Positions 5,581 through 63,669 of a DNA stretch of 64,000 bases are shown here, in pieces. How positions within the stretch are numbered: the stretch's first letter is position 1; each line of letters begins with the position of its first letter. This DNA comes from a virus (taxonomy: Duplodnaviria > Heunggongvirae > Uroviricota > Caudoviricetes), in the IMG/VR virus record IMGVR_UViG_2737471844_000002, positions 10,565 to 74,564 of that record. One strand, written 5' to 3'. The notes beneath the pieces are model-generated. The model saw only the letters and a program-made list of their open reading frames with translations. It did no database searches and was not told where the DNA came from. The translations under genes were made by a program, and so were the position numbers.

Positions 5581-5609
5581 AACAGTAAGTTACTACCGGA
5601 GACGCCATC

Positions 5610-6077: not shown

Positions 6078-6102
6078 TGGGCCTCAGAAAAAGGAGACAC
6101 TT

Positions 6103-6381
6103 ATGACCAACTATACGGCCCTTGCCGAGTATACGGCCTACTCAGAGCAGGCCCGGGATGCTGCCGGACGCCGCTTCGCTTATATGAAAAATCTGTCCAG
6201 CCAGCTAAACCGAATGGCCGAACAACCGGATATGATTGTTCATGAAGAAGCGTTGCAGTGTGCCATTGCTGATATTATCGCCAGTGAAAACGAGATGCGA
6301 GCCGCTCTGGAAAAAGCAAACGCCTCTGCTCCGCTTTGCAATAAACCTCTTATTACGCCGGATTCCCTTTCCCGCTTCTGA
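6103..6381 (+). CDS. hypothetical protein
   Basis: ATG 6103 (MTNYTALAEY...) within track ORF 6070-6381; no recognisable domain. Confidence 0.3.
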   Translation: MTNYTALAEYTAYSEQARDAAGRRFAYMKNLSSQLNRMAEQPDMIVHEEALQCAIADIIASENEMRAALEKANASAPLCNKPLITPDSLSRF

Positions 6382-15669: not shown

Positions 15670-16065
15670 ATGGATCGCAATACCCCCTACCGTGACGGCG
15701 AACTGAACCCGGTGCCGGTTGCCGCTGCGACCGAAATTTTTGGCGGTCATATGGTGGCCGTTAACGCCTCCGGTTATGCCGTTCCGGCCAGTGCCACGGC
15801 CTCACAGATTACGCTGGGCGTGTCTGATGGCTGGGTGGATAACAGCAAGGGCAGCGATGGCGACGCCACCGTTCTGGTGCGTTGCGGCAAAGCCTTTCTG
15901 ATGGCGAACAGCACCTCAGATCCGGTCACGCAATCGCAGGTCGGCAAGCTGTGCTACGTGGAAGACAGCGTGACCGTGGCAAAAACCGACAACAGCAGCG
16001 CCCGTCCTGTCGCCGGGAAAGTGATCGGCATCGGTGACGATGGCGTCTGGGTTCATTTCAGTTAA
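15670..16065 (+). CDS. hypothetical head-associated protein
   Basis: 131-aa ORF between protease and major head genes. Confidence 0.35.
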   Translation: MDRNTPYRDGELNPVPVAAATEIFGGHMVAVNASGYAVPASATASQITLGVSDGWVDNSKGSDGDATVLVRCGKAFLMANSTSDPVTQSQVGKLCYVEDSVTVAKTDNSSARPVAGKVIGIGDDGVWVHFS

Positions 16066-16075
16066 GGAGCGAAAC

Positions 16076-16984
16076 GTGATAGTCAACGTTAAAAACGTCA
16101 AACAGATTTTTATCAATCTGAAGGCCACCTTCCAGAAAGCCTTCGACCAGTCGCCAACTGACTGGCAGAAGGTGGCAATGGAAGTGCCATCAAACGGCAA
16201 GGAAAACGACTACAGCTGGTTAAGTCGTTTCCCGAAAATGCGCGAGTGGATTGGTGACAAGGTCGTCAAATCACTGGCGGCATTTAACTACACCATCCGT
16301 AACAAGGACTGGGAAGCCACGGTTGAAGTCGATCGTAACGACATCGAGGACGACCAGATTATGGGCTATGCCCTTCAGGCGAAAGGGGCCGGACAGTCGG
16401 CAGCAGAGCTACCGGCAGATATTGTGGCGTCCCTTATCAGTAACGGTTTTACCAATCCCTGTTACGACGGTCAGATGTTCTTTGATACCGACCACCTGGT
16501 CGCCGGTAAATCGGTGTCCAACAAAGGCACCAGAAAACTCAAAGTTGGCTCGCTTGCCGAGGCGAAAGCCTCCTACGGTACCGCCCGTACGGCCATGCGT
16601 AGTCTGAAAGATGACGAAGGCGCATCCCTCAAAATTCGCCCGAATCTGCTGGTTGTGCCACCGGCGCTGGAGGATGACGCGAACTACCTGATGACCGCCG
16701 AGAAGTTCCCGGACGGCACGCCGAACCCGTACCGCAATACCGCCGAAGTGCTGGTGATGCCGGAGCTGGCGTCGGATTCTGCGTGGTTCCTGTTTGACAC
16801 CACCAAACCGGTGAAACCGCTGATTTATCAGCTGCGTAAAAAGCCTGTTTTTGTGGAGCAGACGGACTACAACAGCGACAACGTGTTCAAGCGTAAGAAG
16901 TTCCTGTTTGGTGCCGAAGCGCGCTGTAACGGCGGTTACGGCTTCTGGCAGATGGCATTTGGTTCTGATGGTACGACGGAGTAA
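16076..16984 (+). CDS. major head subunit (Mu T-like)
   Basis: GTG 16076 preceded by aaggagcg SD; 302-aa product resembles Mu gpT. Confidence 0.75.
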   Translation: MIVNVKNVKQIFINLKATFQKAFDQSPTDWQKVAMEVPSNGKENDYSWLSRFPKMREWIGDKVVKSLAAFNYTIRNKDWEATVEVDRNDIEDDQIMGYALQAKGAGQSAAELPADIVASLISNGFTNPCYDGQMFFDTDHLVAGKSVSNKGTRKLKVGSLAEAKASYGTARTAMRSLKDDEGASLKIRPNLLVVPPALEDDANYLMTAEKFPDGTPNPYRNTAEVLVMPELASDSAWFLFDTTKPVKPLIYQLRKKPVFVEQTDYNSDNVFKRKKFLFGAEARCNGGYGFWQMAFGSDGTTE

Positions 16985-36457: not shown

Positions 36458-37540
36458 ATGGTAAACGTGAGGGAGGATGAACTTTTCAAACTCATCGAGC
36501 AAGGCATCAAAGGCAACGCAAATGCATTTACACTCCTATGCAGAAAGATGATTAACAACATCCGTAAAAATGATGAGGCTTTAGCTTCTAAGCTGGCTTC
36601 GTTAGTTGCTGAGGGAACAGTATTACGTGGGGCATCTAGTAAGGCTCCTATGCCTGTGGATGGAGACTCCAGACGAAACCTTTTGCAGGAAACATCTGTC
36701 AACGCAATTGTTGAAGAACCTGTATGGAATACGGATATCTCAAAGAAGCTGGAGTCAATTGTTAACGAAAGAGAGAATGCGGTTTCTTTGTTCAAAGCTG
36801 GTCTTGAACCTGTGAAGACGGTTTTACTTTCTGGCCCGCCAGGCGTAGGCAAAACAATGTCCGCACATTGGCTTGCTGCAAAGTTAAATTTACCTCTTTT
36901 AACATTGGATCTCTCATCTGTAATGAGTTCTCTTTTGGGAAAAACAGGTAATAATATTAAATCCGTTATGGATTATGCCAAAGAGAAACCATGTGTCCTT
37001 TTGCTTGATGAATTTGATGCTGTTGCAAAAAGACGTGATGATGACAGGGACGTTGGAGAATTAAAACGTTTAGTTACTGTACTCCTACAGACCATAGATG
37101 AGTGGCCAGCGACCTCGCTTCTTGTTGCTGCGACTAATCACCCTGATATCTTAGATCCGGCTGTTTGGCGTCGATTTGAGCACATCCTTAAATTTAATAT
37201 GCCATCAGTAGAACTGATAGATAGATATTTAGTCAATCATAATATTGAACCTGAACTATCTAAAAAACTTGCACCATTATTAGATGGCATGTCCTTTGCC
37301 ATCATTAACCGTATTTTGAATTTCTCCAAAAAGAATGAGGTACTTAGAAATATTCCATTTGAAAGCTCATTAATAGAAGCCGTAATTACGGAGAGGGTTT
37401 CATTGGATGAGTTTAGCGATAATGATCTCAATATAATTAAATATCATTTTGACGGTTTTTCAAATAGGAAGATAGCTGAATTAGTTGGTGTTTCACATCC
37501 AACAATCGCGAATAAATTACAAAAGTGGGGGATTAAATGA
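36458..37540 (+). CDS. AAA+ ATPase with C-terminal HTH domain
   Basis: 360-aa ORF; Walker A GPPGVGKT, Walker B LLLDEFD, sensor/Arg-finger region ATNHPDILDPAVWRRFE; C-terminal GFSNRKIAELVGVSHPTIANKLQKWG helix-turn-helix; AT-rich. Confidence 0.8.
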   Translation: MVNVREDELFKLIEQGIKGNANAFTLLCRKMINNIRKNDEALASKLASLVAEGTVLRGASSKAPMPVDGDSRRNLLQETSVNAIVEEPVWNTDISKKLESIVNERENAVSLFKAGLEPVKTVLLSGPPGVGKTMSAHWLAAKLNLPLLTLDLSSVMSSLLGKTGNNIKSVMDYAKEKPCVLLLDEFDAVAKRRDDDRDVGELKRLVTVLLQTIDEWPATSLLVAATNHPDILDPAVWRRFEHILKFNMPSVELIDRYLVNHNIEPELSKKLAPLLDGMSFAIINRILNFSKKNEVLRNIPFESSLIEAVITERVSLDEFSDNDLNIIKYHFDGFSNRKIAELVGVSHPTIANKLQKWGIK

Positions 37541-39741
37541 TGGAAAGGAACTTACTTTTAGGTAACGGTCATGTTCTGACAAAAAAGGAACCTTTGCCTA
37601 AAGGAAGGGATGGTAAGCGCTATCCCTATACTCTTGAAGAAGTAAGGGAGCATTTAAACCCAGAGATTGATACTTTACTCTCACGCTTTCGCAGTTTGGA
37701 TGATGCGGCTAAGCCAAGGGGGGAGAGTGTATTCAATTTAACTTTACACCCAGCGTTTTTGGGTAAAAGCTACTTTCCGGAAGGATTGCTTAGAGCGACA
37801 GGTTTACGGGATGTCGGTAGCCGTCAGGTAATCATTCGCCCACGGAAAGCGGCACGTCAGTGCGATCAGAATAAGGACTTAGTAACGGCGCAACTGTTTG
37901 TTAGCGGTGATGATGATGCCGTTATAAGATTTAAGGAAATTTTAAATTCCCCTACAGCTCCGAAGGGCGTACAAAAGGATTTGATCGAAATTGAAAGTGT
38001 TAGCTTTTTTGAAGGAAAAGAGAGAGCACGCAATTTTGAGCATGCGAAAAGTGATTTGATAAAATTTGAAGTGGTTCTTCATGCTGGGGTTGAAGACGAT
38101 GATATCGTTAAAGCCTATATTAGCTATGCGGCACAATATGATGTCTCTGTTGATTACAAAAGTAGAATCCAAGTTGGTGGGCTGACTTTCATCGTTGCAC
38201 ACGCGCGACCTGAAGATATGAAAAAAACACTCGATTTTTCATTAATCCGCGTTGTGCGGCCGATGCCGTCTCTCAGGTGTACTCAGCCGAACATTGTCAG
38301 AAAGTTATCTAATATAGTTACACCGGAGCTCCCTAATTCTAAAGCTGTTCTTGAATCCGAACGTATTGCCATTTTTGATGGTGGCTTGGGGACAGCTGAC
38401 TTGAGTAATTGGGTTACGGAATACGTGTATCCAGACACCAAAGAAACAAGCGGATTATTATTGCAGCACGGTAATGAAGTGACATCCACTTTCTTATTCG
38501 GACGTGTCGAGGAAAATGCACCTTCTTTTAAAAGACCGTTTATGAATGTAGATCATTATAGAGTTCTTTCACCGACATCAGGTGACAATGGCAATTGGGA
38601 TTTATTTGATGTCCTTAAGAAAATACAGTCCGTTCTTGATAGTGGTGACTATAAGTTCGCTAATCTAAGTATTGGTCCTCATCTTCCAATTGGTGATGAT
38701 GAGGTTCATGTATGGACTGCTGTTTTAGACCAAATCTGTGCTAAGCATGGGATATTACTTACTGTTGCTGTTGGGAATGATGGCAATGAGGACGGTGATG
38801 CAGCGAGAATACAACCTCCTTCCGATATGGTAAACGCGCTAGCGATTGGTGCTGCTGATCGTAGCGGTGAAAAATGGGGGCGGGCACCATATAGCTGTAT
38901 TGGGCCAGGCAGAAGCCCCGGATTCGTTAAACCTGATGGTGTTATTTTTGGTGGAAGCGACGACGAGCCTTTTTACACTTACAACCCTCTGCTTGGTTCT
39001 ATAGTTGGAGTTCAAGGAACCAGTTATGCCTCTCCATTAGCATTGAGAACGGCCGCTGGAGTTGCGGCTCTATCAGGAACTCCATTGAACACCATTGCAT
39101 TGAAAGCGTTGCTTGTTCATCATGCTGAAACATCAAGAAAATATTCGCGTGAACATATCGGTTGGGGACGGTTTAGTGAGGATCCTAACGTTTTAATCGA
39201 TTGTCCAAATGATACTGCTACAGTAATTTACTATGGTTCATTAGCAAAAAATAAATATTTAAGGGCACCGATCCCATTCCCTGATGTTCCCTTTGACGAA
39301 GCATTTGAGCTTACCGCTACTTTATGCATTCAAACCCCAGTAGATCCTGAACATTCAGTAAACTATACAAGGGCCGGTATGCAGGTAACTTTCCGCCCAA
39401 GATTCGGCCTTGACGATACCGATACAGATGATTTCTTTGGTCAAAAAAGCCAGTATAAGACTGAAAGGGAGTGTAGGAGTGAAGGTCATAAATGGGAAAC
39501 TTGTTTGCACAGAAGCAAAAAGTTCAGTGCTGATACATTATTAAGCGATCCAGTTTTTGATATACGGTATCATGCCCGAGATTCTTCGCGCCATGTTAAG
39601 GGAGTTTCAGCCCCTGATATGCAATATGCGATGGTAATAAGCGTAAGGGTAAAAGACTTTGATTTATATAATGTTATTCGCCAGCGATATACAATTCTGA
39701 ATCCTATTCAACTGCGCACACAAATTTCTCTCGACACGTAA
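37537..39741 (+). CDS. S8 subtilisin-like serine protease with N- and C-terminal extensions
   Basis: 734-aa ORF with ATGA overlap to the ATPase gene; catalytic triad motifs IAIFDGGLG (Asp codon 38377-38379), LQHGNEV (His codon 38467-38469), GTSYASP (Ser codon 39022-39024) in canonical D-H-S order and spacing. Confidence 0.8.
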   Translation: MMERNLLLGNGHVLTKKEPLPKGRDGKRYPYTLEEVREHLNPEIDTLLSRFRSLDDAAKPRGESVFNLTLHPAFLGKSYFPEGLLRATGLRDVGSRQVIIRPRKAARQCDQNKDLVTAQLFVSGDDDAVIRFKEILNSPTAPKGVQKDLIEIESVSFFEGKERARNFEHAKSDLIKFEVVLHAGVEDDDIVKAYISYAAQYDVSVDYKSRIQVGGLTFIVAHARPEDMKKTLDFSLIRVVRPMPSLRCTQPNIVRKLSNIVTPELPNSKAVLESERIAIFDGGLGTADLSNWVTEYVYPDTKETSGLLLQHGNEVTSTFLFGRVEENAPSFKRPFMNVDHYRVLSPTSGDNGNWDLFDVLKKIQSVLDSGDYKFANLSIGPHLPIGDDEVHVWTAVLDQICAKHGILLTVAVGNDGNEDGDAARIQPPSDMVNALAIGAADRSGEKWGRAPYSCIGPGRSPGFVKPDGVIFGGSDDEPFYTYNPLLGSIVGVQGTSYASPLALRTAAGVAALSGTPLNTIALKALLVHHAETSRKYSREHIGWGRFSEDPNVLIDCPNDTATVIYYGSLAKNKYLRAPIPFPDVPFDEAFELTATLCIQTPVDPEHSVNYTRAGMQVTFRPRFGLDDTDTDDFFGQKSQYKTERECRSEGHKWETCLHRSKKFSADTLLSDPVFDIRYHARDSSRHVKGVSAPDMQYAMVISVRVKDFDLYNVIRQRYTILNPIQLRTQISLDT

Positions 39742-43044: not shown

Positions 43045-43198
43045 TGCTCCCCCTGAGTCATTACAGGAAGATTACCCGCGCGCGAAACCGTTCTCCTTAA
43101 CCCCCTGTTCTGGCCGTTTTCTTACAACAAAAGCCCTTTGTATCAGCCTGTTACGCTTTGCCATCATGACTGAAGAACCAGTCAGAGGGGCAAAAACT

Positions 43199-44035
43199 AT
43201 GGCTAATGAAAAAAAGACATCCCGCAAAAAGTTTCGCGTGGCTGTCTCCGGATCAACTGTTGATGGCCGCGAAATCAGCCCGGTACATCTGCGTGAAGCC
43301 GCCGAGAACTTCAACCCGGATGTTTACGCTGCCCGCGTGAACGTTGAGCACTATCTCTCGCCATGCCCGTCAAGCGAATTTTCCGCAATGGGCGATGTCA
43401 CCGCGCTGAGTACGGAAGATATTACGGAAGGCCCGCTGGCCGGACGTACTGCGCTGTATGCAGAAATCGAACCGACCGAGCGCATGAAGCAGCTTGTCGC
43501 TGACGGCAAGAAAATCTATTCCAGTATCGAACTGCACCCGCAGTTCTCCGTTAACGGGCGCGCCTATCTGGTCGGGCTGGCGATGACCGACACCCCGGCA
43601 AGCCTGGGCACTGAGCGCCTGAAATTTACGGCACAGCAACGTCAGGCGGTGATGACGTTCAACAGTGTCCAGGGTGAAGCACCGCTTATCTCCGAAGCCA
43701 TCGAGTCTGAAATCATCGAAATGGCAGAACAACGCCAGGAAGAAGGCACCCAGTGGTTTAACCGCGTAATGGGGATTATTGGTCGTGGCCGCAAAGCGGA
43801 TGGCGCCAGTTTCTCCCGTATTCAGGAAGCGGTGGAAGGTGTCGCAACGTCACAGGCCGACATTATCGACCGTTTTAATGTGCTGGAAACCCGCCATCAG
43901 CAGGACAGCCAGAAAATCACTTTACTGACCACAGAGCTGGCAGCACTGAAGGAAAAACTGCGCACGCAGGACGGCGATCCGCAGAACCGGTTCACCGCAA
44001 CAGGTGCAGCCTCCGACCAGCTGGCTGACTTCTGA
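43199..44035 (+). CDS. O: capsid scaffolding protein gpO
   Basis: ATG 43199 with gagggg SD upstream (track ATG 43166 is an alternative); 278-aa product close to P2 gpO length. Confidence 0.75.
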   Translation: MANEKKTSRKKFRVAVSGSTVDGREISPVHLREAAENFNPDVYAARVNVEHYLSPCPSSEFSAMGDVTALSTEDITEGPLAGRTALYAEIEPTERMKQLVADGKKIYSSIELHPQFSVNGRAYLVGLAMTDTPASLGTERLKFTAQQRQAVMTFNSVQGEAPLISEAIESEIIEMAEQRQEEGTQWFNRVMGIIGRGRKADGASFSRIQEAVEGVATSQADIIDRFNVLETRHQQDSQKITLLTTELAALKEKLRTQDGDPQNRFTATGAASDQLADF

Positions 44036-51455: not shown

Positions 51456-53588
51456 ATGAGTACCACAACACGTAAATTTAAAACCGTTATCACCGATACG
51501 GGTGCCAAAAAATTAGCTCAGGCAGCCGCGCCAGATGGTAAGCCTGTCCGCCTGACTCATATGGCCGTGGGCGACGGTGGCGGTACATTGCCCACACCAG
51601 ACAGTAAGCAGACCCGTCTGGTGCATGAGGTGTGGCGACATACTGTTAATCGCGTCATCCTGGACGCAACACATCAGAACCGCATTATTGCAGAGCTGGT
51701 TATTCCTCCAGAAACGGGCGGATTCTGGATCCGGGAAATTGGTGTGTTTGATGAGCACGGCGATTTAATCGCGGTGGGCAATACTGCCGAAAGTTACAAG
51801 CCAGCCGTTGCCGAAGGGTCCGGTCGTGCACAAACATTTCGCACCATTCTGACCGTATCCAGCACTGCCACTGTGGCGCTTACCGTGGATAACACCATGG
51901 TGATGGCCACAGTGGATTACGTGGATAACAAACTGAAAGAGCATGAACAGTCACGACGTCACCCGGATGCCTCGCTGACCGCAAAAGGCTTTGTTCAACT
52001 CAGTAGCGCCACTAACAGCGATTCTGAAACGCTGGCTGCAACGCCGAAAGCGGTTAAGGTCGCGTATGATCTTGCTAACGGAAAATATACAGCGCAGGAT
52101 GCCACAACAGCGCGAAAAGGCCTTGTCCAGCTTAGTAGTGCAACCAACAGTACATCTGAAACGCTGGCGGCAACATCAAATGCAGTAAAAGCTGCCTATG
52201 ACAATGCTGAAAAACGTCTGCAGAAAGCTAAGAATGGTGAGGATATCTCTGACAAAGACACCTTTACGAAAAATATCGGTGCCTGCCGTGCATATAGTGC
52301 AGAGCTGAATATTGGTGGAGATAGTGAAGCATGGACAACTGCGCAGTTGATTTTTTGGCTAGAGAGTCAGGGGGCATTTAACCATCCTTACTGGATGTGC
52401 AAAGGCTCATGGGCTTATGCAAGTAATAAGGTCATTACAGATACAGGTTGCGGAAATATTTGTCTTGCAGGTGCTGTTGTGGAAGTTATTGGCACCCGCG
52501 GCGCAATGACCATACGCATTACCACACCGAGTACATCCAGCGGTGAAGGCATCCCTAATGCTCAATTTACTTATATTAATCATGGTGATGCTTATGCTCC
52601 TGGCTGGCGAAGGGACTATAACTCCAGGAATAAGCCAACAGCATCAGAGATCGGGGCGTTACCGTCAGATGGGACAGCAGTATCGTCAGTTAATCTGGCT
52701 TCAAAAGGTCGGCTGACCGCCCTGACAGATAATATGCAGGGGGCCACAGGTCTGGAGTTATACGAGGCGTATAACAACGGATATCCAACAGCGTATGGAA
52801 ATATCATTCACCTGAAAGGGATGACAGCCGTTGGCGAAGGCGAATTACTCATCGGCTGGAGTGGTATAAGCGGTGCTCATGCTCCGGCATTTATTCGTTC
52901 ACGACGGGATACGACCGACGCAAACTGGTCGCCGTGGGCGCAGCTTTACACCTCGGCTCATCCTCCTGAAGAGTTTTATCCAGTCGGTGCACCGATTCCG
53001 TGGCCATCAGATACCGTTCCGTCTGGTTATGCCCTGATGCAGGGGCAGACTTTTGACAAATCTGCATACCCGAAACTTGCAGTCGCTTATCCGTCAGGCG
53101 TGATCCCTGATATGCGTGGCTGGACTATCAAGGGCAAACCTGCCAGTGGTCGTGCCGTATTGTCTCAGGAACAGGACGGCATTAAATCGCACACCCACAG
53201 CGCCAGCGCATCCAGTACTGATTTGGGGACGAAAACCACATCGTCGTTTGATTACGGTACTAAAACGACCAGTTCATTTGATTACGGCACAAAAACCACA
53301 AATAGCGCAGGAGCTCATTCACACAATATACCTGTTGGTCACACTGGCGCGGGGAATGGTGTATCAGCCGGTTATAACGCTGCGTTAGGTACTGGTACCA
53401 CGTCGAGCGCAGGAGGGCATGCTCACAATGTATATATCGGTGCCCATAACCACACTATCGGCATTGGTGCTCATGCCCATTCTGTCATTATTGGTCCCCA
53501 CGGACACACCATCACCGTTAATGCTACGGGGAACGCAGAAAACACCGTAAAAAACATCGCATTTAACTATATTGTGAGGCTTGCATAA
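51456..53588 (+). CDS. H: tail fibre protein gpH
   Basis: 710-aa ORF; P2 gpH-like N-terminus ([21 protein letters not shown]...); internal tandem repeats; C-terminal tip shared with the Mu-like fibre at 28501-29430. Confidence 0.85.
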
Positions 53589-54187
53589 TGACATTCAGAA
53601 TGAGTGAACAATCACGGACCATAAAAATTTATAATCTGCTGGTCGGAACCAATGAATTTATTGGTGAAGGTGATGCATACATTCCACCTCATACAGGTCT
53701 GCCTGCAAATAGTACTGATATTGCTCCGCCAGATATTCCAGCTGGCTTCGTGGCTGTTTTCAACAGTGATGGGGCGTCCTGGCATCTCGTTGAAGATCAT
53801 CGTGGTAAAACGGTTTATGACGTGGCTTCCGGCGACGCGTTATTTATTTCTGAACTCGGTCCGTTACCGGAAAATGTCACCTGGTTGTCGCCGGAAGGGG
53901 AATATCAGAAGTGGAACGGCATAGCCTGGGTGAAGGATACGGAAGCAGAAAAAGTGTTCCGGATACGGGAGGCGGAAGAAACAAAAAACAGCCTCATGCA
54001 GGTAGCCAGTGAGCATATTTCGCCACTTCAAGATGCCGTAGATTTGAATATTGCAACAGAGGAAGAAACATCGTTACTGGTGGCATGGAAGAAGTATCGA
54101 GTGCTGCTGAACCGTGTTGATACATCAAGAGCACCGGATATTGAGTGGCCAGCTTCCCCAGTGGAATCAAGGAGTAAACAAGCATAA
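53588..54187 (+). CDS. G: tail fibre assembly protein gpG
   Basis: 199-aa ORF; ATGA coupling to H. Confidence 0.8.
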
Positions 54188-54251: not shown

Positions 54252-55460
54252 ATGTGTGATTTGGAATTTCAGGGTACCATTATGAATGTTATTTCATCGT
54301 TAAAACAGCTTAACAGACAGCGAAATATTAAAACAAAAAAGATAAAGACGAAGGCCAGACTGGCATTTCTAAAAATGCGATACAGAAGGAAAACATCATT
54401 ACAGCCGGATAGTTATAAAACAGTGTGCATTTTCATGCACATGCAAGCCATTGGTGACGGCATCGTTACCTCAGGGTTTATTAAACAACTTCAAAAATCC
54501 GGTATGGTGGTATATGTGATAGCACCTTCAAGAGTATCATTCCTCTTTACTGACATTGTTGGCGTGGATGCCTTTATATCTTACGAGAAAAATAAATTTA
54601 ACGAACTAAAAGCAAAGATAAAAAAACTGAATGTAGATCTTGTTGTTGACTTCTCAAATTTTGATAACACAGCGATAACCAGATTGCAAACACTACATTT
54701 ACTTAGACCTAAACACTCTATCTGTTTTAATCATCCTGCCGTAACTATTTTTGATACAAATATAATCGATAATCGTTCCATTCACACATCTGAAAGAATG
54801 AAAAAAGTTTTATCTTTACTAAAGATAAAAAATAATAATTATGCTGCAGCGCTTAATTTTGACAACAAAATATATGAACCAGCAAATATTGTTGCAAATG
54901 AATTCAGGAAAAAAAACAAAAAATTAGTTATATTTAACCCTTATGGCTCTCAGAATAGCAGAACCTTATCTGATGAACAGATAAAAAAAGTACTAGCTTA
55001 CCTTAATAACCTTAAGGGATATCACACAATAGTTTTTAATATGGGAAAACAGATTAATCACAATGGATTGGATAATGTGTCTCTATCTCCATTTTCTGAT
55101 GCCGGATGTTCATTTGCATTGGTTCGCCATGCTGATTTTGTTATAACTGTAGATACTGCCATTGTACATTTAGCCAGTGCATTAAACATTAGACAATACT
55201 GTATATATAATAACAGAATGCATGAAGGAAAATTCGAAAATAATATTGTGTGGGGGCCAAACAGCAAATTAGCGACTCAACTCACCACATCCGAACATCT
55301 AAGGTCTGAAGGGGGCGACGATATGCATAAATTCGACATAATGATCTTAATTAATGCTATCAAACAAGATTTGACAAACGATATACCGAATTACCACTCG
55401 GATTTAGGTTGTAAAAATAGTTCCAGAAACCCAGAATTAGAAAGTAGCAATTCTTTATAA
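54252..55460 (+). CDS. GT9-like glycosyltransferase (heptosyltransferase fold), moron
   Basis: Track ORF begins at TTG 54222; ATG 54252 or 54282 more likely; strongly AT-rich; C-terminal VDTAIVHLASALN and central FNPYGSQNSRTL motifs resemble WaaC/WaaF-type LPS heptosyltransferases. Confidence 0.55.
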   Translation: MCDLEFQGTIMNVISSLKQLNRQRNIKTKKIKTKARLAFLKMRYRRKTSLQPDSYKTVCIFMHMQAIGDGIVTSGFIKQLQKSGMVVYVIAPSRVSFLFTDIVGVDAFISYEKNKFNELKAKIKKLNVDLVVDFSNFDNTAITRLQTLHLLRPKHSICFNHPAVTIFDTNIIDNRSIHTSERMKKVLSLLKIKNNNYAAALNFDNKIYEPANIVANEFRKKNKKLVIFNPYGSQNSRTLSDEQIKKVLAYLNNLKGYHTIVFNMGKQINHNGLDNVSLSPFSDAGCSFALVRHADFVITVDTAIVHLASALNIRQYCIYNNRMHEGKFENNIVWGPNSKLATQLTTSEHLRSEGGDDMHKFDIMILINAIKQDLTNDIPNYHSDLGCKNSSRNPELESSNSL

Positions 55461-55556
55461 AGTAGAAACCTCAACAGTTTTATCAGGACCTACGATATAT
55501 TATATAACAACAAGCCGCCCATTACCCAATATGAAGGTATTGGCGGCAATGTAAAA

Positions 55557-56051
55557 TCAGAACAGTCCTTTAACTGAACTGGCCGCGCTGTTAAGAGATG
55601 ATGTCACCTTATCTTTGAAGCCGGACAGCATATCGCTGAACGATGAGGATTGCAGGCGCTCCCGCAAATCCTCATCACAGCGTTCAAGGGTCAGTGAAAA
55701 TTCTATCTTTTTCGCCTTACCGTAGCGATCAAACTCGGAACGGGTCGTATTCGTTCCGGTCAGGACATACATGCCGTAAATCAGCCCGACACCATCAATC
55801 AAAGGCCAGGGTCGTCCTGTATACGCCTGCGTGGTCAGCAGCGACAGCGACACTTCGCCACCTGTAATTTCAGGATAAAGCACACCAGAAAGCACGATGC
55901 GATCATCACCTGCACCGATATACTGCCAGCTTGCTGAACGGTTAACGCGTTCATTTTTCACATGCCGCCAGCTTTTGTTTTGCTGTAACTGCTGATGCGG
56001 CAGCGTGCGCAGCTCAAAAACAAACATGCCGTAGATCATCATCATGGCCAT
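55557..56051 (-). CDS. U: tail protein gpU
   Basis: 164-aa ORF on the minus strand; P2 gpU-like size. Confidence 0.75.
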   Translation of the reverse strand: MAMMMIYGMFVFELRTLPHQQLQQNKSWRHVKNERVNRSASWQYIGAGDDRIVLSGVLYPEITGGEVSLSLLTTQAYTGRPWPLIDGVGLIYGMYVLTGTNTTRSEFDRYGKAKKIEFSLTLERCDEDLRERLQSSSFSDMLSGFKDKVTSSLNSAASSVKGLF

Positions 56052-56057
56052 GACTCC

Positions 56058-58901
56058 TCAATCTTTATCGTAAAAACTTCCACGCCCGGCACGGGCGCGC
56101 CGTTCCATTTCTGCCCTGACCATTTCACCGACCAGTTTCGCCAGTTCGCGGGGATTCTGCGTAACAACGTTATGCAGATGAACATGAATTTCACCGCCAA
56201 ATCCGGAGGCAACAGGCTCCCGGTTACGGGAAGTTGCAGGAACTGATGCCACTGGCGATCGTATGGCCTCTGCCACCGGGCGGGAGCTGGCCGCAACAAC
56301 AGGGACCAGCGCCGGAGGCAGCGGAGCCGGAACCACAGGTGTGATATTAATTGCGGGGGCAGGCTTACTGACCTGCGCAATCTTCCGCTCCTGCCACTCC
56401 CCACGAACAGCAAGTGCTCGGGGCAGGTTCTTAAAGACAATATCGCCGGGGCCAATGCGTTTTTTCGTCTCATCAACCAGCTTACCTGTGTTATCAGCAA
56501 TTTTGCTGAGTCTGCGTAGCGTCCCGGTATTGCTGTCTGTGAGCGGTTTGTTGTCTTTGGGTTTATCACCTCCGGTGCCATTGCCATTTTCCACAGGCTT
56601 CGGCGGATTGATTTTCGCCAGGTCCCCCTGAAGCAAGGCAACCTTGTCCTGAAGAATGGCCGCACGCTGTGCGTCTTCGATTTTCTTGCGCGCCCTTTCC
56701 GCTTCATCCGGAAGGACGCCAAGTTTTTCAAGTATCCACGCCAGCGTATCCAGTAGCATTTTTGCAGGTGTCAGAACAAGTTGTAACGCACCGCCAAGAA
56801 CGTTACCGAATATCTCGCCAGCACTGGTACATTTATCCAGCGTTTCCTTGCTGGACTCCATCGGTGACAGCAGCGATTTAAACCAGTTAAACACCTGGCT
56901 GATCCCGCTTCCGATTGCGTCAAAAACAGGACCAAACCGTTCAAAGGTTTCGCGCAACGGGGTCAGCCTTTCCATAATCCCGCTGAACACCCCGGCAAAA
57001 AATGCCCTGATGGGATCCCAGTATTTCCAGATAAGAACGGCAGCTCCGGCAAGCGCAGCCACGATAAGACCAACCGGACTGAACAACGCCCCGATAGCGC
57101 CTCCCAGTAAAGAAACGGAACCCGTCACCATTCCCCATAGTGCTGGCAGGACCCTGACAGCATTCATTGATCCGGTCAGGAGAGAAAAACCAAGACGCAG
57201 TTTTGCCAGCGGGCCAGCAAGCACACCAATAGCCAGCGACAACGAGCCAACCGTTGCAGTCATTGCCAGCAGCGCACCGCCTGCTATCAGTAGCTGGCGC
57301 GTCAGTGCCGGATGGGCCTGCGCCAGCGCCGTCACCCTTGATACCACCCGCGTGAGCCACTGCGTGACAGAACGCAGCGGACCGTCAATCAGATCTGCAA
57401 TGCGGATGCGCAACCCTTCCCATGCACTGCCGAGTGATTTCAGATCGCCGTCAAGGTTGTTGGCCATAACCTTTGCTGTGCGTTCAGCCTCACCGCGCGC
57501 GCCTTCAAGTTCTTTTCTCAGTTTGGGTAAGGAACCGTCACCCGCTGCATCAACGAGCGCCATAAACGATGTGAAAGCCTCTTCTCCGGCAATGTCCTTA
57601 AAGAACGATACCCGGTCAACTTCCCCGTATTTGCGGGTGGCTTTATAAAGGTCGGCCAGCACATCTTCCATCGGGCGCATTTTGCCGTTCGCGTCAGAGA
57701 CTGCCACACCGAGCTCTTTCAGCGCCTCTGCTGCTGCCTTTGGCGGTGATGCCAGACGAGCCAGGCTGGCACGCATTGCCGTCCCGGCATCACTCCCTCT
57801 GATACCCATATTCGCCAGCACGCCCGCCATCGCTGCGGCCTGCTCCAGCGATATTCCCAGCTTACCCGCCGCCGGACCTGCATATTTCATGGTTTCGCCC
57901 AGTGCGCGAAGGTCAGTGTTGGTACGGGTAAACGCTGCGGTGAGCGTGTCGCCAACCCGGTCCATCTGGTCAGCAGAAAGGCCGAACTGCGTCAGGATAT
58001 TTGAGCCAATATCCGCCGTCTCGCCGAGATCCATGCCGCCAGCCGTTGCCATGCTCAGCACGCCCGGAAGCGCAGCCTGAATGGCCTGCGGTGTGAAGCC
58101 CGCCATTGCAAGAAATGCCTGCCCACTGGCGGCATCGCCTGCGGTGAACTGCGTTTCAGAGCCAAGTTTTAACGTCTGCTCACGCAGCGCCTTAAACTGC
58201 GGGCTGTTTTTGTCGATTCGCGTCAGAGCCTGAACGCGGGACATCTCTTTCCCGAACCCAATCGCGGGCTGCAAAAAACGCCCGGCAGCATAGCCGCCCG
58301 CCGCTGCCGCACCTGTTGCCAGTGCACCACCTGTTTTCAGTTTTCCCGCGGTTTCCTGCGCGCGCGAATACCGCTCACGCGCCCGCGTTACACGCGCAAG
58401 CGCCTGCCGTTCGCGTTCAAGCTGGTTGTTGTACTGTTCGGTGCGTCTGATGGCCTGCTGGATGGTGTTATCGCTGCCTGTCAGGGAAATGCCGTGGCGT
58501 TTCAGCTCTCCGCCAAGCTCCCGCATTTTCTGAATTTCCCGTGTGCGCGATTCATTCAGGCGTTCAAGCCGGGTGCTTAACTGCTGCATCAGCTTTTGTT
58601 GTTTTTCGCTGAGCACTGTACCCGTGCGTTGTAACTGATTAAGGGCGTTAAGCTGGCGTCGTGCTTTCACGATACCCGCATCCGCTTTACTGACAGCGTC
58701 GCGGGCGCGCTCAAATGATCGCGCCTGACGCTCGAGATTTTTGATCGCCCCCTGCGTTCGCTGGATGGAGTCACCAAACTGCCCCATCAGGCGGCGTGCG
58801 TTTTCGGCAGGTCGGGTCAGCCTGTCAACGGCGCTGAAAGCGACCCGGATATCAAGAGTCTTCATTGTCTGCATTCCCGCTGCGAAGTGCCGCCCGCTCA
58901 C
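56058..58901 (-). CDS. T: tail tape measure protein gpT
   Basis: 947-aa ORF on the minus strand; Ala-rich, coiled-coil N-terminus. Confidence 0.8.
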   Translation of the reverse strand: MSGRHFAAGMQTMKTLDIRVAFSAVDRLTRPAENARRLMGQFGDSIQRTQGAIKNLERQARSFERARDAVSKADAGIVKARRQLNALNQLQRTGTVLSEKQQKLMQQLSTRLERLNESRTREIQKMRELGGELKRHGISLTGSDNTIQQAIRRTEQYNNQLERERQALARVTRARERYSRAQETAGKLKTGGALATGAAAAGGYAAGRFLQPAIGFGKEMSRVQALTRIDKNSPQFKALREQTLKLGSETQFTAGDAASGQAFLAMAGFTPQAIQAALPGVLSMATAGGMDLGETADIGSNILTQFGLSADQMDRVGDTLTAAFTRTNTDLRALGETMKYAGPAAGKLGISLEQAAAMAGVLANMGIRGSDAGTAMRASLARLASPPKAAAEALKELGVAVSDANGKMRPMEDVLADLYKATRKYGEVDRVSFFKDIAGEEAFTSFMALVDAAGDGSLPKLRKELEGARGEAERTAKVMANNLDGDLKSLGSAWEGLRIRIADLIDGPLRSVTQWLTRVVSRVTALAQAHPALTRQLLIAGGALLAMTATVGSLSLAIGVLAGPLAKLRLGFSLLTGSMNAVRVLPALWGMVTGSVSLLGGAIGALFSPVGLIVAALAGAAVLIWKYWDPIRAFFAGVFSGIMERLTPLRETFERFGPVFDAIGSGISQVFNWFKSLLSPMESSKETLDKCTSAGEIFGNVLGGALQLVLTPAKMLLDTLAWILEKLGVLPDEAERARKKIEDAQRAAILQDKVALLQGDLAKINPPKPVENGNGTGGDKPKDNKPLTDSNTGTLRRLSKIADNTGKLVDETKKRIGPGDIVFKNLPRALAVRGEWQERKIAQVSKPAPAINITPVVPAPLPPALVPVVAASSRPVAEAIRSPVASVPATSRNREPVASGFGGEIHVHLHNVVTQNPRELAKLVGEMVRAEMERRARAGRGSFYDKD

Positions 58902-59088
58902 GCCAGCTAACCACTTCGCCGGGCGTCATCATGAAGATTTCGGCGGGCGACCAGTTAAAAATAACGGCAATATCTGCCACAAAGTCTTCTATGTGCTCAA
59001 AGCACACAACCGTGATCAGGCTTCCGTCGCCTGTTCGTTCTTCCCGCCAGAGTCCGCACCGCTCAAAAAATTTACGGCAACCACACAT
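58852..59088 (-). CDS. E-prime frame of tail chaperone (expressed as E+E-prime by -1 frameshift)
   Basis: ORF in the -1 frame relative to E, overlapping the E 3-prime end and the T start; a slippery heptamer lies in the overlap. Confidence 0.55.
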   Translation of the reverse strand: MCGCRKFFERCGLWREERTGDGSLITVVCFEHIEDFVADIAVIFNWSPAEIFMMTPGEVVSWRERAALRSGNADNEDS

Positions 59089-59381
59089 AACTGAATAAAG
59101 TCACTGGATGCCATTTTTTTGATCGTCACTTCATCCAGTCGCGGTGATGTCACGCGTGACAGCAGAGTAAACATGGATTCCGCTTTCAGATTCAGCACAT
59201 CAGACAGCGACAAATCTCGCAGAGATCCAGCCTGCTCAATAGCCCCGGTAATCTCCACATACGTGATTTTTTCGCCGCCTCGCTCAATTGGTTGGGTAAG
59301 TTTTACACCACGTTCACTGGTTTCTTTCACAGTGTCAGCAACTACCGTGTTTTCGGTATCGATGTTTTTCGTCTCTTTCAT
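59016..59381 (-). CDS. E: tail assembly chaperone gpE
   Basis: 121-aa ORF between FII and T on the minus strand. Confidence 0.6.
   Translation of the reverse strand: MKETKNIDTENTVVADTVKETSERGVKLTQPIERGGEKITYVEITGAIEQAGSLRDLSLSDVLNLKAESMFTLLSRVTSPRLDEVTIKKMASSDFIQLCVVAVNFLSGADSGGKNEQATEA
59034..59040 (-). other. programmed -1 frameshift slippery heptamer T_TTT_TTG
   Basis: On the coding (minus) strand the E frame reads aaT TTT TTG agc (N F L S); shifting -1 gives TTT TTT GAG (F F E), which matches the KFFE start of the E-prime frame. Confidence 0.55.
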
Positions 59382-59435
59382 CAGGAAATTCCTTTCAGTC
59401 AGAGGCGACGCACTGCGCCGCCTGCATATTACTTA

Positions 59436-59948
59436 TCAGCCAAGCCCGAGCGCGGAACGGATGCGATCGGGCACAATGTCCTTGCCGTCCTTCCGGTAAA
59501 TGAAGTTCAGCAGGTCAATCTCCCACAACGGGCGATCGTTAACACTCAGCTTGTAGTAGGTGTTTTTAATGGCGTAAGTGTGTGATGTGGCTTCGCCCTG
59601 TTTGGCTTCCCCCATATCAATTTCCGTCACACGTCCGCGCATTTCGACTTCATACAGGTCGCTTTCTGCATCGGTGTAGTATTCACCCGCAAAACGCAGC
59701 AGCGTGCCGTCAATCGTGCCGCCATACTTAAGGAACAGCTCACGAACTGCGCCCCCCATGACAAAGCTCGCATCAAGCGCGGAGTCGTCCAGACCGAGAT
59801 CAATACTTACCGCACCCATCATGCCACCACCCCGGTAGCTGTCGGTTTTGCGCGTCAGCTTAGGCAGAGTGACGGACGTCACCTTACCCACTTCGTTTTC
59901 ACCATCCACAAACAGCGTAAAAAAGCGAAGATGTTTTGGTACAGCCAT
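59436..59948 (-). CDS. FII: tail tube protein gpFII
   Basis: 170-aa ORF; P2 FII-like. Confidence 0.8.
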   Translation of the reverse strand: MAVPKHLRFFTLFVDGENEVGKVTSVTLPKLTRKTDSYRGGGMMGAVSIDLGLDDSALDASFVMGGAVRELFLKYGGTIDGTLLRFAGEYYTDAESDLYEVEMRGRVTEIDMGEAKQGEATSHTYAIKNTYYKLSVNDRPLWEIDLLNFIYRKDGKDIVPDRIRSALGLG

Positions 59949-61132
59949 CAGGCACCTCCCAGCACCGCAAATGCGGGACCAAAGAATTCATCAGTAAACG
60001 ACTGGTAAAGCTCCATGTCTTCCAGCGGGGGAACAGGCGTATATTTGTAGCGAATACGCACGCGCCCCTGACGTAAATTCGTGGTGCCGTTATCCACCAC
60101 GTCATACCAGCACGACGCCCCAATCAGTTTCCCGGCAGTAACCAGTGAATCCAGTTTTGCCCTGATGGCACTGATAACATCTTTCACGTTCGCAGGCGTC
60201 AGTGGACTGTCGATGGTTTCAAACTGCGCTTCCGCAATTGAATCAGCCAGCACCTGTGCGGTTCGGGTATACACCTCAAAGATGTAGGCGTTCGTTTCCG
60301 GTGTGCGGTTGCCCCAGAAGCGGAACCCGTTGCGACGAATAATGGTCGTGATTTCTTTGTTGTTGAGGCTGTTGGCATCACTGTCTTCGGCCTGCAACGA
60401 CCAGAACACATGCCTGGACATCCCCAGCACATTTTTAACCGGAACGTTGGACAGCGATTTGTGCCAGCCCTGCTCATGGTCAATGTACGCACGAAGGCCG
60501 CACGCATAGGCAGGCGCGGGGAACGTTTCGTTTTTGCCACTTTTCGGGTTGTAGGCGATGAAGTCCGGCCATAAGAGCATCACCTCACGTTCGTTGAATT
60601 TCTGGCGGTAGGTAATCGCCTCAGCCATCGTGTTACAGCCGTGACATGAGGCATACACAAACGCGCGCAGTTTACCCGCAATCACGCACAGGGATTTTGT
60701 TACCGCCTCCGTGTCCAGCTCCGGCGCGGCCAGAATACGCGGACGGTATCCGATGCTTTCATCCTGCTCTGCAACAAGCAGCGCATACATCCCCGTATAG
60801 CTGCCGTCAGATTCAGAACCACCGATAACCAGTTGATCCTGCGTTTTTCCGTCTTCTTCTTTGTGTTCAGCCACGCGAACGACGATCACCTTTGTGCTCA
60901 CCTGGTCTGCGATGGCCTTAAGCGCACGATAAAGCGTCCCCGTTGTTCCGCATTTTCCCAGCACGTCATTGACGCGGGTCAGCAGTGTGGGCTTGTTCAG
61001 CGGGAACAGCTCCGCATCCGCATCATCCGCCGTTGCCACGATACCGATAACACTGGAATCAACATCATTAATCGCTGTTACCAGGTCGGTACTTTCCGTA
61101 ACACGGGCACCATGAAAACGAGTTTCACTCAT
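59948..61132 (-). CDS. FI: tail sheath protein gpFI
   Basis: 394-aa ORF; strong resemblance to P2 FI (KLRAF.Y.S..GC.T..E...YRQ.F..RE.M..WPDF, GWHK.LSNV, LIRR.GFRFWGNRT). Confidence 0.85.
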   Translation of the reverse strand: MSETRFHGARVTESTDLVTAINDVDSSVIGIVATADDADAELFPLNKPTLLTRVNDVLGKCGTTGTLYRALKAIADQVSTKVIVVRVAEHKEEDGKTQDQLVIGGSESDGSYTGMYALLVAEQDESIGYRPRILAAPELDTEAVTKSLCVIAGKLRAFVYASCHGCNTMAEAITYRQKFNEREVMLLWPDFIAYNPKSGKNETFPAPAYACGLRAYIDHEQGWHKSLSNVPVKNVLGMSRHVFWSLQAEDSDANSLNNKEITTIIRRNGFRFWGNRTPETNAYIFEVYTRTAQVLADSIAEAQFETIDSPLTPANVKDVISAIRAKLDSLVTAGKLIGASCWYDVVDNGTTNLRQGRVRIRYKYTPVPPLEDMELYQSFTDEFFGPAFAVLGGA

Positions 61133-61289
61133 AGCTTCAGCCCCTTGTATCCGTTAAATGATTCGGCAACAATCATCACCCACCACGCGCGTAATCTCAC
61201 CCCTGCGCCATTCTCCCGCCACGGCGACAACAAAAAGCAGTAACCCCCTCCGCACGCACATGCGACCATGCCGCACAGGGAGGGAACAG

Positions 61290-62399
61290 ATGACCGACAC
61301 CACCATGCAATTGCTCAGTCAGGGCACAGACCCCGTGAAAATGCCGGATTTTGATATTCTCGCGGAGGGTAAAACGCTGTCAGGCGTGGCAGAGCGCCTG
61401 ATGAGCCTGTCACTGACCGACAACCGGGGATTTGAGGCGGACCAGCTCACCATCACGCTGGATGATGCGGATGGTCAGTTGCAGCTACCGCCACGGGGCG
61501 CGCGCCTGACGGTTCTCATTGGCTGGAAGGGAGAACCGCTGACAGAAAAAGGCACTTACATTGTTGATGAAATCGCTCACGAAGGACCGCCGGACAGGCT
61601 GACTGTTTCAGCCAGAAGCGCAGATTTTCGGGATGAATTTAACGTTAAACGTGAGGTGTCCTGGCATGATGTGACCGTTGAGAGTGTGGTATCCGCCATC
61701 GCTCATCGGTATGGTCTGAAACCGCAAATCAGCGAAATGCTGATGGATATCGAAATCGACCACGCCGACCAGACCGAAGAAAGCGACATGTCCTTTCTTA
61801 CGCGCATGGCGGAAATGCTGGGCGCAATCACCACCGTAAAAAGCGGCAATCTGTTATTCATCATGCCAGGTGGTGGCGTGAACGCACAGGGCCAGCCGTT
61901 GCCCTCGTTCGCCATTACACGCAGCAGCGGCGATCGCCATCAGTTCCGTATTGCTGACCGCGAGGCGTATACGGGGGTACGCGCCTACTGGCTTGATCTT
62001 AATTACGGGAAAAAGAAAAAAGTCAGCGTGAAACGCCGCAAACCGCCAAAACCCAAAAAGGAGAAAAGCAGCAGCCGTGAAGGTGATTATATGGAAGGCG
62101 CGGAAGGCAATGTGTTTGTGTTACGCAAGACTTATCAGAACGAGCAGGCAGCAAGACGCGCAGCGGCGGCAAAGTGGCAGCAACTACAACGCGGAGCCGC
62201 ATCATTCTCCATCACGCTGGCACGTGGACGAGCAGAACTCTACCCCGAAATGCATGGCACGGTAACAGGATTTAAAAGCGAGATTGATAATCAGGACTGG
62301 ATTATTGCAAAAGCCGAGCACACCATTGATAACAGTGGCTTTACCACGCAGCTTGAGCTTGAAGCCAAAATCCCGGAATGGATAGCAGAAACAGAGTAA
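61290..62399 (+). CDS. D: tail protein gpD
   Basis: ATG 61290 preceded by cagggaggg SD (track start 61158 is probably too far upstream); P2 gpD-like; on the opposite strand to FI-U. Confidence 0.75.
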   Translation: MTDTTMQLLSQGTDPVKMPDFDILAEGKTLSGVAERLMSLSLTDNRGFEADQLTITLDDADGQLQLPPRGARLTVLIGWKGEPLTEKGTYIVDEIAHEGPPDRLTVSARSADFRDEFNVKREVSWHDVTVESVVSAIAHRYGLKPQISEMLMDIEIDHADQTEESDMSFLTRMAEMLGAITTVKSGNLLFIMPGGGVNAQGQPLPSFAITRSSGDRHQFRIADREAYTGVRAYWLDLNYGKKKKVSVKRRKPPKPKKEKSSSREGDYMEGAEGNVFVLRKTYQNEQAARRAAAAKWQQLQRGAASFSITLARGRAELYPEMHGTVTGFKSEIDNQDWIIAKAEHTIDNSGFTTQLELEAKIPEWIAETE

Positions 62400-62513
62400 A
62401 CAACTTAGATGCATTAGCCCTGACATTTGCTAACGCGCTTACAGCAAGAATCATAACCAATCTGACAGCCTACCCGGTGTCAAAATCAGAAGAGCCTTAC
62501 ATTAGAATATGTT

Positions 62514-62532
62514 AATTTGTAGCAAACAAATT
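62514..62532. promoter_or_regulatory. inverted repeat (candidate operator) upstream of moron gene
   Basis: aatttgt agcaa acaaatt, 7-bp arms, within an AT-rich promoter-like region. Confidence 0.3.
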
Positions 62533-62593
62533 TACACACAAATGATTACTGCTGAAATAGCCCCCATAAATACCATGTCAAAGGATCCATGTT

Positions 62594-63259
62594 ATGAATA
62601 TGCAAATTTTTATCGCACCAGCAGCCACAGTTGCTGCAGTCTGCCTTGCTGCATATTTTGCTTTACGAAATGAACGTAAAAAGAAAGCACTTGAGATTAG
62701 AACAACTCAACTAGATCGAATATCAGAGCTAGTAAACCGAGCATCTACCAATTTGATGCAATATACAGGTACTCTTGCCTCTATACTGGAAGCGCACGCC
62801 AAAGATAATTATCTACCGAACAAAAAATTTGACATTAATGTAATTAGCAAATGGAAAGATTGCCTCGATGAGAGTGAGGTCTGGGCGATTGATAGACAGC
62901 AACTAAGAACATGTCAGCACAGTCTGGAGTTTCATCGTGAAAAAGAATGGGCTGAATGGAAAAAAATAATTCCACCATTACTTGATAAAATTGACCAATT
63001 TTTTCTCATATCTAAGCCAGGGCAACCTGTTACGTTTATAAATGGCCAAAACAAAACAGCTGATGAACTACTTGTTTTCTCAAGATATTTGAGAAAACAA
63101 ACAGCAGAAATTGAATCAGTACGTCAGCTGTTACTTTCTCAAATGAGAGAGGAATTCATCGAGTTAACTAGCTTTGAACCTGTCACAATGTTTAGCTTAT
63201 TTAAATCAATAAAGAAAAATGTCATGCAATTTTTCTGTATCAGTGCTCTTAAAAATTGA
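62594..63259 (+). CDS. membrane-anchored protein of unknown function (moron between D and ogr)
   Basis: 221-aa ORF; single N-terminal TM helix (IFIAPAATVAAVCLAAYFAL); strongly AT-rich; own terminator downstream. Confidence 0.5.
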   Translation: MNMQIFIAPAATVAAVCLAAYFALRNERKKKALEIRTTQLDRISELVNRASTNLMQYTGTLASILEAHAKDNYLPNKKFDINVISKWKDCLDESEVWAIDRQQLRTCQHSLEFHREKEWAEWKKIIPPLLDKIDQFFLISKPGQPVTFINGQNKTADELLVFSRYLRKQTAEIESVRQLLLSQMREEFIELTSFEPVTMFSLFKSIKKNVMQFFCISALKN

Positions 63260-63274
63260 CGCTCTGTTGCAAGC

Positions 63275-63297
63275 AACCCCAGTGTTAAACTGGGGTT
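63275..63297 (+). terminator. terminator-like hairpin
   Basis: aaccccagt gttaa actggggtt (9-bp stem) followed by attcttgc; flanked by an extra gcaag/cttgc pair. Confidence 0.5.
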
Positions 63298-63408
63298 ATT
63301 CTTGCTAAGAGACCTTTCTACGGCATCAGTAAACAAAACGAACTATCAGTTGGAGTCTGAGCAAGTTCAGCCTAAACTAGCGACAGCACTACGTTAAGGG
63401 AGGTCGCT

Positions 63409-63669
63409 ATGTTCCGTTGTCCGCTTTGTGGCGCATCTGCCCGTATCCGCACCAGTCGTCCGGAAAATGATTCAAACACCGTGCGGCAAAAGTATTACCA
63501 GTGTAACAACCTGGAATGCGGCGTATGCTTCTCAACACTGGAAGCTTTCCATAAATTCACATCGAAACACGCCTCCGGCATCCACTCTTCAGAAGATATC
63601 CCGTGGCATGAGCTGCCAGCTTCACACAGGGGAAACAATCAGATGAGCTTGCCTTTACCTCAGAATTAA
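63409..63669 (+). CDS. ogr: Ogr/Delta-family zinc-finger late transcription activator
   Basis: 86-aa ORF starting MFRCPLCG...RTSR...YYQCNNLECG; matches the Ogr C-x2-C ... C-x4-C zinc finger. Confidence 0.75.
   Translation: MFRCPLCGASARIRTSRPENDSNTVRQKYYQCNNLECGVCFSTLEAFHKFTSKHASGIHSSEDIPWHELPASHRGNNQMSLPLPQN

Follow-up and report, generated by a model that had tools for sequence, protein, structure and literature searches.

Inverted FI-to-U tail block in a P88-type P2-family prophage and a predicted Ogr site shared by FI and D

Tail gene order in P2 and in the window

The P2 RefSeq record gives the late gene order as H and G on the plus strand, fun(Z) on the minus strand within the G-FI gap, and then, again on the plus strand, FI, FII, E, E', T, U, D and ogr. 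U overlaps D by one base in P2, which makes D the last cistron of the F operon. The same record annotates a single 'activator binding site; pO, pP promoters', TGTGTCAGTGATAAGCCA, with the P and O start sites located 55.5 nt to either side of it, and P/O is the only gene pair of P2 for which such a shared-site architecture is annotated. A shared single site has also been proposed for pP'/pO' of Smp131 (PMC3931495). Two further P2-like phages, Escherichia phage P88 and Citrobacter phage PhiSM, were isolated as infectious, plaque-forming temperate phages (PMC5285337, PMC6456863).

The window analysed here is a 64,000-nucleotide stretch (positions 10,565 to 74,564) of the IMG/VR virus record IMGVR_UViG_2737471844_000002. 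We put at roughly 85% the probability that it holds a P88-type (Xuanwuvirus-like) P2-family prophage in which one ancestral inversion of the FI-U block has become fixed, and in which a shared Ogr site would drive both FI and D. Results of a megablast search against phage genomes show that the prophage is 95–97% identical to P88 (NC_026014; Xuanwuvirus, Peduoviridae) and to its relatives P884B11, PhiSM, 520873, 500465-2, 503458, PhiR44_2 and Chuche. Identity to P88 amounts to 95.6–97.6% over the shared segments only, with P88 nucleotides 1–6209 outside the window and a different cargo; the ICTV genus criterion is roughly 70% nucleotide identity over the full length.

Pfam and PHROG searches identify the complete contractile tail set of the P2 family (Peduoviridae), namely FI, FII, E/E' with its −1 frameshift, T, gpU and gpD. 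On the left, the ORF map and family searches place H (51456–53588) and G/tfa (53588–54187) on the plus strand, followed on the same strand by a GT9-like glycosyltransferase cargo gene (54282–55460; PF01075; phrog_36326, E=3.4e-241). This gene, whose GC content is low in the GC profile (about 33%), sits in the G/FI (Z/fun) slot and marks the left breakpoint region; homology to P88 picks up again at 55550, to the right of it. All genes of the F operon that follow are on the minus strand. The last gene of the inverted operon, U, encodes the gpU tail protein (55557–56051; PF06995, E=4.9e-38; phrog_76); its DNA is 97% identical to that of P88, and it converges on the glycosyltransferase gene over 96 bp (55461–55556). 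It is preceded by T, which encodes the gpT tape-measure protein (56058–58865; PF10145, E=4.2e-57; phrog_28); the longest ORF extends to 58901, and the ATG at 58865 fits the 2808-nt annotation of P88 gp45. The E gene for gpE (59016–59381; phrog_103) is extended by a −1 frameshift to E+E' (58852–59381), with PF06528 (Phage_P2_GpE) matched in the overlapping frame. The slippery run TTTTTTG was read in the sequence at 59070–59064, and an E/E' pair is annotated in P2 as well. Ahead of E come FII, for the gpFII tail tube (59436–59948; PF04985, E=7.5e-47), and the first gene of the operon, FI, for the gpFI tail sheath (59948–61132; PF04984, PF22671 and PF17482; phrog_23).

D, which encodes the gpD baseplate hub or late control protein D, lies on the plus strand (61290–62399; PF05954; phrog_52, E=3.8e-166), divergent from FI across 157 bp (61133–61289). 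The longest D ORF begins at 61158, and the start at 61290 is backed by homologues and by a GGGAGGG ribosome-binding site; the D protein of the window is 97–100% identical to P88 D. An ogr-type late activator gene with an Ogr/Delta zinc finger (63409–63669, plus strand; PF04606 Ogr_Delta, E=5.1e-14) lies downstream of D, its orientation and relative position matching those of P2. A colinear FI-to-D operon of the canonical kind was not found in the window, where FI to U occupy the minus strand and D the plus strand; D is detached from the F operon and by gene order forms a separate transcription unit.

The difference between the window and P2 is a simple in-place inversion of the FI-U block. The two loci share the same eight gene families, ogr included, and the same E/E' T6G frameshift. 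However, FI to U run colinear with H-G and D in P2 and are inverted in the window, and identity between the D proteins reaches only about 48–51%. The original prediction had described exactly this geometry, and the ORF map and family searches agree with it gene by gene: U, T, E/E', FII and FI oppose H, G, the glycosyltransferase gene and D, FI is divergent from D across 157 bp and U convergent with the moron gene, and the complete FI-U block is truly inverted relative to P2. The P2 order that it had given matches the RefSeq record, from which it also follows that the breakpoints relative to P2 are the G-FI cargo locus and the U/D boundary, as it had claimed. What did not survive is the use of the P2 order as the expectation: the prediction had allowed that this might be wrong for the subfamily, and it is. 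Its interpretation of the locus thus holds for the geometry and for the need of D for a promoter of its own, and fails where it treats the arrangement as an anomaly or a possible artefact.

Distribution and history of the inverted block

The annotations of P88 and PhiSM show a strand pattern exactly as in the window, and the comparison with related P2-like phages that had been proposed returns the same arrangement in P88, PhiSM, SEN4 and Kp4860-2. Given that P88 and PhiSM are infectious, the inverted arrangement is functional. What P88 and its close relatives have in common with the window is gene A, the genes for head, lysis and baseplate, and the complete U-T-E-FII-FI / D block. The slot between G and U, filled by the GT9-like gene in the window, holds an invertible tail-fibre segment with a DNA invertase in P88. 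More distant phages retain the arrangement. SEN4 (Senquatrovirus, Salmonella) and the Kp4860-2 / 3LV2017 group (Reginaelenavirus, Klebsiella) share the inverted U-T-E-FII-FI / D-ogr order, although they belong to other genera, infect other hosts and carry other cargo, and although their D proteins are only 63–70% identical to that of the window and their FI proteins 60–67% identical over the first 90 residues.

A wider survey of phage genomes was made by tblastn with a U+D fusion protein, which matched 521 phage records. U and D are adjacent and colinear in 387 of them, including distant phages of Burkholderia, Ralstonia, Xanthomonas, Halomonas and Mannheimia; since such distant phages too have colinear U-D, the canonical order is ancestral. 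The records in which the U and D halves lie apart include Xuanwuvirus, SEN4 (Senquatrovirus) and Klebsiella Reginaelenavirus phages, and inspection of SEN4 and Kp4860-2 revealed the same inversion in both.

Bacterial genomes were surveyed by a D-alignment scan of GTDB species-representative genomes, a similarity-biased sample of 80 loci, with 306 D-positive GTDB loci in all, to which the window and phage loci were added; orientation was called by tblastn, and loci with an FI match were counted. The split by D identity is perfect. All 54 loci whose D is at least 61% identical to that of the window (49 GTDB loci together with the window, P88, PhiSM, SEN4 and Kp4860-2) are inverted, whereas all 23 loci whose D is at most 53% identical are canonical. 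Hosts of the inverted loci include Salmonella, Symbiopectobacterium, Serratia, Erwinia, Pectobacterium, Brenneria, Kosakonia, Klebsiella and Raoultella, as well as Yokenella, Xenorhabdus, Photorhabdus, Providencia, Morganella, Yersinia, Hafnia, Rouxiella and Pantoea, among others. Neighbour-joining trees were built for D and for FI from this similarity-biased 80-locus sample and midpoint-rooted; in both, the inverted loci, the window included, group as an exclusive clade with no canonical locus inside it.

The exclusive clade in both trees makes one inversion in the ancestor of the lineage the simplest history, and we infer a single event: in a common ancestor, the FI-FII-E/E'-T-U block would have flipped once between the G/FI cargo slot and the U/D boundary, and the inverted arrangement would have been fixed in the lineage ever since. 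The inverted order is the standard one for a large P2-like lineage that is known, having already been sequenced and classified. The P2 gene order is not universal in Peduoviridae. Of 5426 complete E. coli genomes, 1110 contain the divergent FI/D junction as one contiguous stretch, so that the inverted FI-U clade is met in about a fifth of them and, beyond E. coli, across the Enterobacterales. For annotators and for automated scanners, this means that an inverted FI-U block is not to be flagged as a rearrangement or a misassembly.

The FI/D spacer and the expression of D

On the basis of its conservation, the divergent FI/D control region (61133–61289) is predicted to hold a bidirectional pair of late promoters, pF leftward and pD rightward. 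The spacer is conserved in P88, PhiSM, SEN4, Kp4860-2 and 48 unique inverted-lineage sequences, which are phylogenetically related and hence not independent. The P88 spacer is near-identical, with a length of 158 nt by the same measure and one substitution in the alignment. A search of this region for Ogr-dependent late promoters, as proposed at the outset, gave a divided answer. The exact motif TGT-N12-ACA does not occur in the FI/D spacer, and its 15 occurrences in the whole window, against 15.5 expected, represent no enrichment; however, a one-mismatch search finds a sole candidate in the spacer, TCTCCCGCCACGGCGACA, of the form TCT-N12-ACA (61212–61229, centre 61220.5), with the mismatch in one half-site. 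The spacer alignment shows that this site is an exact TGT-N12-ACA in most relatives, SEN4 and Kp4860-2 included, where it occupies the equivalent position. Functional activator sites of P2 also carry one mismatch, which is why an exact-motif scan of the P2 sites is empty. With the motif at chance frequency in the window, it is positional conservation, and not the motif itself, that supports the Ogr-type site. The distance between its centre and the FI ATG is 88.5 nt in the window and varies from 74.5 to 88.5 nt across the inverted lineage, similar to that of P2 pF (82.5 nt).

The 48 unique spacers, when anchored on the activator site, reveal a hexamer on either side of it. In the window, the predicted −10 element of pF, GATGAT (61177–61172, minus strand), is located 35–40 nt from one edge of the site, with a predicted start at about 61165, and the predicted −10 element of a D-specific late promoter, GACCAT (61264–61269, plus strand), is located 35–40 nt from the other edge, with a predicted start at about 61276. 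Both predicted starts are thus about 55 nt from the dyad centre. A hexamer of the form NANNAT occurs in 46 of the 48 spacers at exactly 35–40 nt from the FI-side edge of the site, and 42 of the 48 have one at the mirror-image distance (offset 35) towards D. Canonical loci, taken as a control, have it in 16 of 19 cases towards FI and in 2 of 19 on the non-FI side, which identifies the D-side hexamer as a derived trait of the inverted lineage. The D leader is predicted to be short, about 14 nt (lineage median 14 nt), and contains the GGGAGGG sequence. A GC-rich CGCGCGC stretch lies between the activator site and the D-side hexamer in the lineage spacers.

The arrangement resembles that of P2 pP/pO, where one dyad site with one mismatch lies midway between divergent late genes and the starts are about 55 nt away on each side. 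The start sites are known in P2 for pP/pO and predicted in the window for FI/D, and the use of such a site between FI and D is a predicted property of the inverted lineage only. A similar site is present in the P/O spacer of the window (43109–43126). Duplication of the pO side was considered as an origin of the D-side promoter and set aside, as by eye only 8–9 nt beside the site (ACAAAAGC) are shared.

These observations suggest how the inverted lineage could have stayed viable. Because the activator site of pF is dyad-symmetric, an inversion that placed it between FI and D need not have silenced either gene. Leftward from the site, the F operon, now reduced to FI through U, would still be driven; a second −10 element at the mirror distance on the opposite face would allow the same Ogr-bound site to drive a short-leadered D transcript rightward. 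D is accordingly placed among the genes predicted to have a late promoter of their own, at the shared Ogr-type site. The original prediction had argued that D, severed from the F operon, needs its own promoter, and a conserved candidate is indeed present. We consider it reasonably probable that promoter symmetry is what made the split of the operon tolerable: a second promoter core would have evolved or been captured, the sheath/tube operon and D would both be fired, in opposite directions, from one Ogr-bound site, and read-through to ogr would persist on D transcripts only. Ogr binding and both transcription start sites are here deduced from sequence comparison.

An alternative that accepts the inversion as real and ancestral would give D an independent promoter, constitutive or otherwise regulated, or would see in the D-side hexamer a signal of another kind, for instance in RNA or translation. 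As −10 elements, the D-side hexamers (GACCAT, AACCAT, GACGAT) match weakly, and the CGCGCGC block and the short leader could serve other functions. Against this, the hexamers are exactly mirror-symmetric about the dyad, with an offset of 35 on both sides; the D-side element is lacking on the non-FI side of most canonical loci; P2 pP/pO and the Smp131 proposal cited above provide precedents for a shared site; and a scan of 54–64 kb finds no sigma-70 consensus promoter facing D in the spacer, counts being at chance level. D is moreover an essential late tail gene and as such must be expressed late. Taken together, these points make a non-shared D promoter improbable.

Neither the P88 paper nor the C. 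rodentium PhiSM paper discusses the inversion, and literature searches by genus name and for P2-like inversion (covering P88, SEN4 and 3LV2017) retrieved no paper on the inversion or on a shared FI/D promoter. Since none of the papers found comments on it and the lineage itself is known, the shared-promoter reading is a small, testable addition and not a new kind of system. The split of D from the F operon would seem to be accommodated by the bidirectional re-use of a symmetric Ogr site, in the manner of pP/pO; if true, this is relevant to the question of how phage late operons can undergo rearrangement and still be co-regulated, and it is cheap to test.

Fixed orientation of the block, left edge and cargo

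In practice, both a misassembly and an active invertible element can be excluded. The colinear orientation was sought with a synthetic join of the U 3' end and the D 5' end, as in P2. This colinear U-to-D junction is found in none of 1414 E. coli genomes, in which both halves of the query are present but never together, and none of the 54 loci related to the window has the other orientation.

Both counts weigh against a recent or reversible inversion, that is, a DNA switch that would toggle tail gene expression, perhaps through a Gin/Cin-type invertase beside U. A DNA invertase gene does directly adjoin the U end in P88, PhiSM and P884B11, and the ancient inversion itself could conceivably have been brought about by an invertase acting at a secondary site. 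However, the window prophage has no serine invertase beside the block, the slot that holds it in P88 being taken by the GT9-like gene. A search for inverted repeats that would pair 55460–55560 with 61130–61290 found none, yielding only short chance pairs elsewhere. The fixed promoter geometry, moreover, appears to have co-evolved in the spacer and would be disrupted by a flipping segment. A switch is therefore very unlikely, and the suggestion that the inversion is an event of this genome, possibly switchable, gives way to an arrangement that is lineage-wide and spans at least three ICTV genera.

That an assembler mis-oriented the 5.6-kb block, as the departure from the P2 order and the abutment of a Mu-like prophage at 32172/32173 might suggest (this junction is unseen in other complete E. 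coli genomes, so that the region is not free of odd joins), has a negligible probability, given that both junctions of the block recur independently, FI/D contiguous in the 1110 complete genomes and G-GT9-U in 48, that independently sequenced phage genomes of three genera, among them the plaque-forming P88 and PhiSM, share the order, and that the colinear junction occurs in none of the 1414 E. coli genomes.

At its left edge, the P88-type prophage is incomplete. The Mu-like prophage fills positions 1–32172, and its CA terminus directly abuts the P88-type prophage, in which homology to P88 begins at 32173, 253 nt inside the replication gene A. Relative to P88, the copy in the window thus lacks nucleotides 1–6209 and has its gene A interrupted by the Mu-like prophage, at a junction found in 0 complete E. 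coli genomes when searched for. This P88-type copy is probably replication-defective, with its tail genes intact.

The gap between U and the GT9-like gene contains a GCCGCC...GGCGGC hairpin followed by UUGUUGUU, with an RNA fold z-score of −0.79. It was considered as a terminator and rejected, the z-score being only −0.79 and the sequence belonging to the cargo and not to the P88 backbone. Two further insertions distinguish the window from P88, which has neither: one of 968 bp lies between D and ogr, and the other is an IetA/IetS defence pair (36458–39741).

Junction of the two prophages

The left half of the window (1-32172) is occupied by a Mu-like prophage, recognized by genes for DUF3164, GemA, Mor, a GH108 lysin, DUF1804, the Mu gp45, J and gp48 baseplate proteins and tail fibres. 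Its right terminus reads ...GAAGTTACA, and homology with Escherichia phage P88 begins exactly there (32172/32173), 253 nt into the replication gene A; P88 nucleotides 1-6209, which encompass int, C, cox and early genes, are missing from the window. The junction looks like the product of a Mu-type transposition into gene A, and it occurs in none of 5426 complete E. coli genomes. The P2-like prophage is probably replication-defective following the interruption of this gene.

Accessory genes and module exchange

An IetA/IetS gene pair (36458-39741, plus strand), matching anti-phage defence proteins (E=3.6e-89 for IetA and 6.6e-41 for IetS) and with a low GC content of about 40%, is flanked by the replication/ParM genes on one side and the portal gene on the other, a site that corresponds to the old/tin cargo hotspot of P2. 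Further along, the C-terminal part of the tail fibre gene H and the assembly gene G (52209-54187) diverge from P88 and show about 89-93% identity to lambda stf/tfa and to their counterparts in vB_EcoM-Ro157c2YLVW, a typical host-range module swap. Between G and U, where P88 carries an invertible tail-fibre segment and a DNA invertase, the window contains instead a GT9-like glycosyltransferase gene (54282-55460, plus strand; 33% GC) with a weak match to PF01075 and a match to phrog_36326 (E=3.4e-241). Forty-eight complete E. coli genomes share this G-GT9-U junction, and the gene may be an LPS-modifying lysogenic-conversion gene. A low-GC insert of 968 bp (62410-63377), absent from P88, separates D from ogr; it comprises a 221-residue open reading frame (62594-63259) with no match in Pfam, PHROG or PADLOC, followed by a terminator-like hairpin (63275-63297).

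The P/O spacer and the start of gene O

In the P/O spacer (43045-43199), a site of the form TCT-N12-ACA occupies 43109-43126 and precedes ACAACAAAAGC, an arrangement common to this spacer and the FI/D spacer. Since the ATG at 43166 falls within the predicted pO -10 element (CATCAT, 43162-43167), gene O probably starts at 43199, in agreement with the P88 annotation.

Annotation and labelling of public records

This enterobacterial P88-type prophage recurs with 96-98% identity in a 226-kb contig assigned to ‘Vagococcus sp. WN89Y' (NZ_JBQPOM010000071.1), a Firmicute genus, and this assembly is probably contaminated or mislabelled. The P88 RefSeq annotation (NC_026014) lacks an ogr CDS, a homologue of which was located by tblastn downstream of D at about 15884-16140, and the record of Citrobacter rodentium phage PhiSM labels the sheath gene ‘late control gene D protein' and the D gene ‘ogr'; both are annotation errors. 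The ‘hypothetical protein' calls made in the FI/D spacer (P88 gp50 and PGAP predictions; 61112-61243, plus strand, in the window, and equivalents) extend across the beginning of FI as well as the predicted promoter, and are probably spurious.
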